Sequence record: PV763039.1
DNA: 64,000 bases
DNA from: Escherichia phage WPEC6
Reading direction: 5' to 3' (one strand)
The position numbers were made by a program, and so were the translations under genes. The notes under the pieces were generated by a model, which saw nothing but the letters and a program-made list of their open reading frames with translations, was not told the origin of the DNA and did no database searches. Positions 49,693-50,370 of this stretch are shown here, one piece after another. The stretch's first letter is position 1; every line of letters starts with the position of its first letter.

Positions 49693-50370
49693 CTATTTAA
49701 TGTTAAGTCTGGCACACAAACGAGAAACAGTTTTAGCATCCCATTTACCACCACGTGCTGTTGCTATTTTCTTACTATTGAATTTTTCAGCAATAGTTTT
49801 GTAAGGTGTATTTAAATCTCTAAGGATCTCCAAACGTTCACGAAATGTCTCTGCAAAAGCGTCGGCTTTAACAGAGTTGTATTCCATTTTTCCTTTTCTA
49901 CGTGCAGCGGCAGTTTTAGGATTAGCACTGCCTAATAAAACACCTTTGCTTTTTGCTACAGCAAGACCCTTTTTAATACGATCAGCAATACCTCTAACTT
50001 CTTGTTCAGCCAGAACAGATAGAAGCTGTATAACCATTTTATCTGCGTCTGGCATGATGGCTATCTTAACATCGATCATCTCCAGAAGAGTTGCTACAGA
50101 GGCGTTGTTACGACCCAAGCGGTCAACTTTAGCTACCAATAAAGTTGCTCCGGTAGCTTTACACATTTCAACCGCTTTGACCAGTTCCTTACGTTGCTTC
50201 CAATCGCCCTTACCCGAATAGTATTCAGAAAATTGACCAATAACTTCAGCATCAGGCACAGAGTCTAAGAAGTAACGGATATCGTTCTCTTGGCTCTCCA
50301 TACCATATTGTGCCTCACCTTTTTTCTGTTTAGAAAGACGACTGTAAACAACAAACTTTTTCATAACCAC
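49693..50370 (-). CDS. serine recombinase (resolvase/invertase family)
   Basis: VYSRLS catalytic-Ser motif, LLVAKVDRLGRN, C-terminal HTH ...ARGGKWDAKTVSRL. Confidence 0.85.
   Translation of the reverse strand: MVMKKFVVYSRLSKQKKGEAQYGMESQENDIRYFLDSVPDAEVIGQFSEYYSGKGDWKQRKELVKAVEMCKATGATLLVAKVDRLGRNNASVATLLEMIDVKIAIMPDADKMVIQLLSVLAEQEVRGIADRIKKGLAVAKSKGVLLGSANPKTAAARRKGKMEYNSVKADAFAETFRERLEILRDLNTPYKTIAEKFNSKKIATARGGKWDAKTVSRLCARLNIK

Follow-up and report, generated by a model that had tools for sequence, protein, structure and literature searches.

A conserved serine recombinase gene of the virulent genus Phapecoctavirus and the probable mis-ordering of the Escherichia phage WPEC6 record around it

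A stretch of 64,000 nucleotides (nt) from the record of Escherichia phage WPEC6 (PV763039.1), referred to here as the window, carries on its minus strand a gene for a serine recombinase of 223 residues that is intact and, judged by predicted fold and active site, would be catalytically competent. Sequence comparison indicates that the gene is functional and under strong purifying selection, and it is a long-standing conserved component of the Stephanstirmvirinae (Phapecoctavirus, Justusliebigvirus and their Klebsiella relatives) and of more distant large myoviruses. Among the roles that have been suggested, replicon-multimer resolution best fits the contextual evidence, and our tentative preference, held with somewhat less than even confidence, is that the enzyme may resolve or cyclise phage DNA at a single site. 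Of most practical use is a result on the record itself: the structure of the window outside 28210-60886, the block that contains the gene, should be distrusted. The features of the gene and its promoter are as follows.

49693..50364, minus strand: coding sequence of the serine recombinase, 223 residues plus stop (open reading frame list; Pfam, PHROG and PDB matches; same call in 10 independent assemblies)
50370..50373, minus strand: ribosome-binding site GGAG, read from the sequence, 5 nt before the ATG at 50364
50394..50422, minus strand: sigma-70-type promoter TTGACA-17-TAAAGT, directly 5' of the recombinase (consensus scan, 10/12 matches)
49939..50352, minus strand: catalytic (Resolvase) domain and long E-helix, residues ~5-142 (PF00239 at 5-142 of 223 residues, AlphaFold2, Foldseek)
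50332..50334, minus strand: codon of the predicted nucleophile Ser11 (Ser14 in the 225-residue reading), in the motif Y-S-R-L-S (38-sequence alignment)
49696..49920, minus strand: predicted C-terminal helical DNA-binding domain, residues ~149-223 (PF07508, family profile, Foldseek)
50407..50432, no strand assigned: imperfect 26-base-pair (bp) dyad AATAAATACCTTGACAAGTGTTTATT over the -35 hexamer, an unsupported candidate binding or crossover site

The open reading frame list gives the frame as 49693..50370 on the minus strand, with 225 residues, the 50370 end being an in-frame GTG two codons upstream of the ATG. The true start is most likely the ATG at 50364, a correction of 6 bases, because GGAG precedes it and because 223 residues is the length found in the 10 independent assemblies, where the gene has 672 bases including the stop, and in the closest database homologues. 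The promoter was compared in five homologues from other phages, namely phiWec179, VEcB, Klebsiella phage phi1_175008, Shewanella phage 1/40 and ICP1, making six lineages with the window. In each of the five a TTGAC-type -35 hexamer (TTGACA, or TTGACT in VEcB), a spacer of 16-18 nt and a -10-like hexamer occupy the same position. We infer that the promoter is functional, and that the recombinase is expressed early from it by host RNA polymerase. The gene sits within a run of small same-strand genes that includes a paralogue family, as an earlier reading made from the letters of the window (the sequence-only reading) had described it in placing the gene among small minus-strand genes with paralogues.

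That reading had also recognised a resolvase/invertase-family protein, and database matches bear it out. The Pfam Resolvase family PF00239 is matched at 65.9 bits against a cut-off of 23.3 (E = 5.4e-18; residues 7-144 of the 225-residue reading), as it is by all 38 family members collected; PHROG_125, 'DNA invertase', is matched at E = 1e-32 and, among PDB chains, the Tn3 and gamma-delta resolvases at E ~3e-6. The motifs YSRLS and VDRLGR can be read directly in the protein and, on alignment of the 38 homologues (31-78% identity), Y7, R9, S11, Q25, R58, D81, R82 and R85 prove invariant, so that the active-site residues are intact throughout. In the alignment with the PDB chain these invariant residues fall on R8/S10 and D67/R68/R71 of gamma-delta resolvase, which we take to be the numbering of its catalytic residues. 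The AlphaFold2 model (mean predicted local distance difference test score 90.2) has a catalytic fold of mixed alpha/beta type, followed by an E-helix of 30 residues (109-139) and a C-terminal domain of four helices. Foldseek relates it with probability 1.00 to the catalytic domains of Sin, gamma-delta and TP901-1.

The C-terminal domain is less conventional. It weakly matches the Pfam Recombinase family PF07508 at residues 189-218 of the 225-residue reading (187-216 of 223; model positions 19-48 of 102), a match shared by 20 of the 38 family members with a best E-value of 6e-6. The best full-length Foldseek match is Bxb1 integrase. A profile of the family finds Gin, gamma-delta and Tn3 at E-values of 1e-15 to 1e-17 in alignments mostly ending near residue ~150, and finds the Bxb1 and SPbeta integrases in alignments extending to residue ~216. 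By these matches and the model, the C-terminal domain is like the opening helices of the 'recombinase domain' in large serine integrases. No helix-turn-helix model of Hin or resolvase type was matched by the C-terminus, and no NCBIfam model came near its cut-off, the Mpi invertase model scoring 22.6 bits against 272 and those of XisF and CcrB lying far below theirs.

The protein thus stands between known classes. Like the small serine recombinases (gamma-delta/Tn3, Sin, Hin/Gin) it has an N-terminal catalytic domain with the serine and the R, D-R and R motifs, a long E-helix, a size close to their ~190-220 residues and a single C-terminal DNA-binding domain, with ~22-28% identity in the matched segment of structural alignments to Sin. 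It differs from them in a C-terminus that is PF07508-like rather than a three-helix helix-turn-helix, and no adjacent sites of res or hix type were found at the phage gene. With the large serine recombinases (Bxb1, phiC31, TP901-1, SPbeta SprA) it shares the best full-length alignments, which reach the start of the recombinase domain, whereas those proteins have 450-600 residues and the phage protein lacks most of that domain, the zinc ribbon and the coiled coil; moreover its host phage is virulent, with no att-type sites or lysogeny genes known (PMC5374246). Membership of the large class (integrases, TnpX, CcrAB) was rejected on these grounds of length (223 residues, against more than 400 for the class), of a PF07508 match that is only partial and of the missing zinc ribbon and coiled coil. 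A serine transposase of IS607 type was likewise rejected: there a MerR-like helix-turn-helix comes first and the catalytic domain last, whereas here the catalytic domain is N-terminal, at residues 5-142.

Conservation of the gene was assessed with tblastn and by counting differences between genomes. A protein at least 99% identical is encoded in 62 phage records and one of 60-90% identity in 9 more; identity falls to ~57% in Justusliebigvirus and 52-55% in the Klebsiella relatives, and is lower still in Shewanella phage 1/40 (35%) and Vibrio phage ICP1 (30%). In an assembly collection, 884 indexed blocks contain the exact protein, and hardly any Phapecoctavirus or Justusliebigvirus record lacks the gene. 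Against two unselected genomes, ESCO37 and Ro121c4YLVW, the gene shows 9 synonymous and 1 non-synonymous differences in the former and 15 and 1 in the latter. The resulting ratio of non-synonymous to synonymous polymorphism (pN/pS) of ~0.02-0.03 is equal to or below that of neighbouring genes.

The phage belongs, by the RefSeq classification of its relatives, to the genus Phapecoctavirus of the Stephanstirmvirinae: window positions 48000-52000 are 100% identical to Escherichia phages WPEC1, WPEC2 and WPEC4 and 97-99% identical to ~60 phAPEC8-like phages. The genus is described as virulent and without lysogeny genes (PMC5374246, PMC10269720), in agreement with the virulent lifestyle suggested from the letters alone. 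Published papers disagree on whether these phages have a recombinase: the two just cited say that phAPEC8-like phages have none, while a third has one, terming the gene a resolvase 'for keeping concatemers as single genomes' and offering no data (PMC10282059). The literature yields passing mentions only, with no characterised function. Public records label the gene variously as 'resolvase', 'serine recombinase', 'DNA invertase' or 'recombinase family protein' and, in most cases, 'hypothetical protein'. It is, then, an uncharacterised member of a well-known superfamily, already labelled as a serine recombinase in several public records. The matter has some practical weight, since phAPEC8-like phages are under development as therapeutics and any recombinase is flagged in screening pipelines as potentially marking lysogeny; for such screening it is useful to know that this serine recombinase is core and constrained, is not an integrase and has no invertible segment.

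The mechanism that we favour may be set out as follows. The recombinase would be made early from a host RNA polymerase promoter; a dimer would bind phage DNA at one specific site, and two dimers so bound would synapse as a tetramer. Ser11 would then cut all four strands with 2-nt staggers, half of the tetramer would rotate by 180 degrees and the ends would be religated. The substrate would most likely be directly repeated copies of a single site, supplied by multimeric or circular replicative forms or by a terminally repeated incoming genome, and the outcome would be not inversion but resolution or cyclisation, of the kind that plasmid multimer-resolution enzymes or P1 Cre/lox bring about. Cre/lox is a functional analogy only: its role is likewise to cyclise terminally redundant DNA and to resolve dimers with one site per genome, whereas Cre is a tyrosine recombinase, P1 is temperate and no lox-like site was identified here. 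Resolution or cyclisation is favoured because of the relatives on small plasmids, the DprA/ligase neighbourhood of the gene in other genera and the lack of paired inverted sites. Were such a role to be defined, phage biology would gain something modest but real, namely a function for a site-specific recombinase in the strictly lytic cycle.

The closest non-phage relatives of the recombinase are on plasmids of 5.8-7 kilobases (kb). Plasmid-borne full-length relatives have 35-40% identity over 95-99% of the protein, and many of the plasmids fall in this size range and are non-mobilisable. Marinovum plasmid pMaD11 (5.8 kb), for example, carries RepA, a ParA-like gene, the recombinase relative and three small genes, and other relatives are found on Klebsiella plasmids of 5.8-6.5 kb and a Synechococcus plasmid of 6.4 kb. 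These small-plasmid 'recombinase family proteins' have the same length and architecture as the phage protein and are single genes without cargo beside Rep and ParA-like genes. A lone site-specific recombinase on such small plasmids usually serves multimer resolution. The upstream regions differ: the non-coding DNA in front of the plasmid genes measures 650-680 bp and has room for a res site, against ~65 bp in front of the phage gene.

In other genera the gene lies in different company. In VEcB (Justusliebigvirus) the order is HslV, two genes, two small genes, the recombinase, a small gene, a HisRS-like gene, a further gene, a NinI phosphatase, one gene and a DprA-like gene. Klebsiella phage phi1_175008 has the same order minus the extra gene before the phosphatase, its recombinase likewise being in a DNA-metabolism module, and in Shewanella phage 1/40 the recombinase lies between the DNA ligase region and a DprA-like gene. 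In the window the orthologues of the genes that flank the VEcB and Klebsiella recombinase, at 34014-34217 and 34263-34457, adjoin one another. Between them (34217-34263) is a 45-bp spacer with a terminator-like hairpin, ACTCCCTTTTCGGAGGGAGTATTTT, which can be regarded as an 'empty site' of the recombinase cassette; the recombinase itself is ~16 kb away, within the early small-gene block. The differing flanks and the 'empty' spacer argue that a promoter-plus-ORF cassette of ~740 bp has changed place between sister genera.

Such mobility raises the alternative of a semi-autonomous, selfish promoter-plus-recombinase cassette that moves between loci and phages in the manner of free-standing homing-endonuclease genes, and the sequence-only reading had similarly allowed for a captured mobile element. 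The ~740-bp unit at differing loci and the 'empty' window site are what such a cassette would leave, and every copy has its own promoter. In the ICP1 record the genes around the homologue have no older gp designations, a sign that the region may be accessory, and the early block around the window gene is mosaic, the 70-residue upstream gene being 80-83% identical to T-even genes. Against this, the recombinase occurs in essentially all records of the two genera, its pN/pS is as low as that of its neighbours or lower, and an amino-acid identity of 57% between genera looks vertical. Neither flanking repeats nor target duplications were found at the cassette, and the domain order is unlike that of IS607-type serine transposases. 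We consider a selfish cassette unlikely. Of the earlier idea of capture, then, the placement at different loci in sister genera survives; a recent capture does not, the gene being core and strongly constrained.

Several points weigh against the resolution or cyclisation that we favour. No recombination site was identified, the sole promoter dyad being non-significant, and the intergenic space upstream, 10-70 bp across homologues (~65 bp in the window, 10 bp in phiWec179), leaves no room for a classical res with three subsites. Multimer resolution is not something that phages packaging from concatemers obviously need, and the function of the plasmid relatives appears itself to be a supposition. 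Finally, the position of the gene varies between sister genera and the ICP1 homologue is apparently accessory, which fits a semi-autonomous cassette equally well.

The search for crossover sites covered the 64 kb of the window, out of a genome of ~150 kb, and identified none; candidate sites were each single-copy there. Between 44 and 56 kb the inverted repeats were short and 71-93% complementary, none flanked the recombinase and no inverted pair rose above chance within 6 kb of it; the repeats there were chance-level short pairs or same-strand paralogous coding sequence. The dyad over the -35 hexamer was rejected as a binding or crossover site since it is single-copy in the window, has p ~0.34 against shuffled sequence and has a right arm that is not conserved in phiWec179. 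The largest non-coding gap of the early block (360 bp, 46324-46683) was likewise set aside, having no structure or repeats and only a promoter-like site at 46390-46361 on the minus strand. Two homologues have significant dyads at their own promoters, overlapping the -10 and +1 positions: ATGAAGAGTA-GTGCA-TACTCTTCAT in Klebsiella phage phi1_175008 (about 3955-3980 of the stretch examined) and AAACCCAGTGAC-N10-GTTACTGGGTTT in Shewanella phage 1/40 (about 3956-3990). Both are candidate sites for autoregulation or recombination; across the homologues they do not appear to form a consistent signal.

The same searches bear on the proposal that the protein is a DNA invertase of Gin, Cin or Hin type, running an on/off or alternative-expression switch of, for example, tail fibres or early genes. 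The classical phage serine recombinases, such as Mu Gin and P1 Cin, are invertases, which counts in favour of the proposal, as does the PHROG_125 name, though that is a family label only, and its use in several GenBank records. Yet the repeat search near the gene found no convincing inverted-repeat pair, nor the short repeats bounding an invertible segment that the sequence-only reading had proposed to look for. The 10 independent assemblies with the exact protein have the same gene order on one strand, with no minus-strand alignment of 100 bp or more over 12.7 kb (about 6 kb on either side). The 24-kb baseplate and tail-fibre region of ESCO37 showed no inversion polymorphism in 133 matching phage records, ~64 of them in Phapecoctavirus: it occupies a single place in nearly all (141 places in total) and, among the matches listed, wherever there is a second place the match always reaches a record end. 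A published comparison of five Phapecoctavirus genomes likewise reports synteny (PMC10269720). The C-terminal domain is not Hin-like, the Mpi model is far from matched, and the 'inverted' repeats in the window are all assembly artefacts, as described below. The inversion switch, one of the roles first suggested for the gene, is accordingly very improbable.

A further alternative is that the recombinase acts on DNA other than the phage's own, rearranging or excising a host or prophage element or attacking a competing mobile element, whether in taking over the host early or in conflict between elements. The sigma-70 promoter points to early expression, the early genes around the recombinase have no known function and the 64 kb of phage DNA yielded no site; by analogy only, the family has a homologue in ICP1, a phage whose opponents, the PLE elements, employ a serine integrase (PMC6002521). 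On the other side, the family spans phages of Escherichia, Vibrio and Shewanella with no obvious common target, and the sites sought in phage DNA were sought in less than half of the genome. We regard a target outside the phage as improbable. A more inclusive proposal, which we hold possible and yet rather doubtful, is that the Stephanstirmvirinae and related virulent myoviruses have a dedicated early serine-recombinase system that cyclises or resolves the genome at a single hidden site, which would make it the serine-recombinase equivalent of P1 Cre/lox among strictly lytic phages, or is directed at host or competitor, and whose cassette relocates within genomes.

When the window is mapped by blastn on ESCO37, it is seen to comprise at least seven blocks in an order and orientation that are non-native relative to ESCO37 and to all other Phapecoctavirus genomes.

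1-940, plus strand: ESCO37 148942..149194, then 1..687
983-2283, minus strand: ESCO37 145230 down to 143926; starts at 941 in WPEC1, and 941-982 has no ESCO37 match
2283-5044, plus strand: ESCO37, mapped from window 4343 (= 141000) and ending at 141701
5036-28214, plus strand: ESCO37 34457-57626
28210-60886, minus strand: ESCO37 34459 down to 690; contains the recombinase and is colinear with genuine Phapecoctavirus genomes
60886-62264, plus strand: ESCO37 142247-143630
62264-64000, plus strand: ESCO37 57629-59365

The joins lie at 940/983, 2283, 5036-5044, 28210-28214, 60886 and 62264. In all records, the 100%-identical WPEC ones among them, the match of window positions 39001-64000 breaks off at 60885/60886, and 62264-64000 matches beside the terminase gene, ~57 kb away. 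It might be asked whether these rearrangements, among them an apparent 57-kb inversion, are real products of the recombinase. There are at least six junctions that are novel with respect to other Phapecoctavirus genomes, and the identical phages WPEC1, WPEC2 and WPEC4 are arranged unlike the window: WPEC1 has the same blocks, with the same ends and 100% identity, next to other neighbours and with further breaks, while WPEC2 and WPEC4 are without the window's junctions and match it in 15-19 separate places. The parental sequences at the joins, however, have only 0-6 nt of microhomology and no common motif, whereas a serine recombinase needs matching sites. The joins also damage genes. One splits the orthologue of ESCO37_00168, whose C-terminal 73 codons begin abruptly at 28210 with no start codon; another replaces the last codons of the ESCO37_00257 orthologue (window ORF 614-982); and a third strips the ribosome-binding site from the gene at 60513-60881. 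The junctions at 60886 and 62264 (J5 and J6) occur in no other record of a collection of 50,697 phage records.

The WPEC1 record (PV659873) shows comparable defects. It has 161 kb where ~150 kb is normal, its annotation places a truncated exonuclease against head genes, and a piece of ~155 bp (window 34979-35134) occurs in it three times and overlaps the adjoining block by exactly 77 bp (WPEC1 positions 5015-5325, 16747-16907 and 16908-23753). The overlap resembles a de Bruijn k-mer overlap that was carried over into the deposited record. The genes interrupted at the joins, the differing arrangement of shared blocks in sibling records and the lack of a common motif indicate that the joins are probably not biological; the window order probably results from contigs joined in arbitrary order and orientation, and WPEC1 is scrambled in the same way, as WPEC2 and WPEC4 probably are. 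That the recombinase made the rearrangements is scarcely credible, and we prefer contig mis-joining for the 57-kb inversion and the others. The local context of the recombinase is reliable only within 28210-60886; structural inference outside that block, from inverted repeats, strand switches or gene order, is unsafe.

This bears on a 21-nt hairpin element, GCGGCACCATTGCCGCCCTAC, with a 6-bp stem and a CCAT loop, and on a paralogue family of ~108-132 residues with motifs of the types 'FYK.WL' (N-terminal) and 'VDRVNWVKERV' (C-terminal), copies of which lie on both sides of the recombinase.

983-1003, plus strand: hairpin element
2301-2321, 3253-3273, 4964-4984, 61011-61031 and 62239-62259, minus strand: hairpin elements
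47641-48027, 48919-49317, 51901-52227, 52660-52986, ~55900-56300 and 60513-60881, minus strand: paralogues
614-982, plus strand: paralogue

The sequence-only reading had pointed to an inverted hairpin element and an opposite-strand copy of the paralogue family ('family A') as worth relating to the recombinase. Both exist in the window, inverted only through its mis-ordered assembly. In ESCO37 all four copies of the hairpin element lie on one strand, co-directional with the genes, in 8.2 kb (141000-149194) that is ~16 kb from the recombinase, and none is found in ESCO37 1-62000; the paralogues at 614-982 and 60513-60881 are tandem neighbours there (361-705 and 695-1063). The supposed link to the recombinase thus disappears in the genuine genome, and the hairpin was rejected as a recombination site, its inverted copies belonging to mis-joined blocks.

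The hairpin element is of some interest in itself. Five of the six window copies are identical and the sixth has two mismatches, and the element lies ~7-10 nt downstream of early promoters of the form TTGACA-N17-TATAxT. Its invariance suggests a recognition site for a protein or ribonuclease in early mRNA leaders. The arrangement recalls the promoter-plus-stem-loop cassettes of T4-type phages.

Pfam gave no family for the eight neighbouring proteins scanned, nor for the four members of the paralogue family scanned. Directly upstream of the recombinase, at 50435-50647 on the minus strand, is the gene for the 70-residue protein (DUF7202) mentioned above, whose 80-83% identical counterpart is a small protein of the T-even phages (Tequatrovirus). 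The similarity implies, on sequence grounds, a probable recent exchange between unrelated phage groups. In many records the DUF7202 gene goes under the name 'ABC transporter ATP-binding protein', which looks like a mis-annotation.

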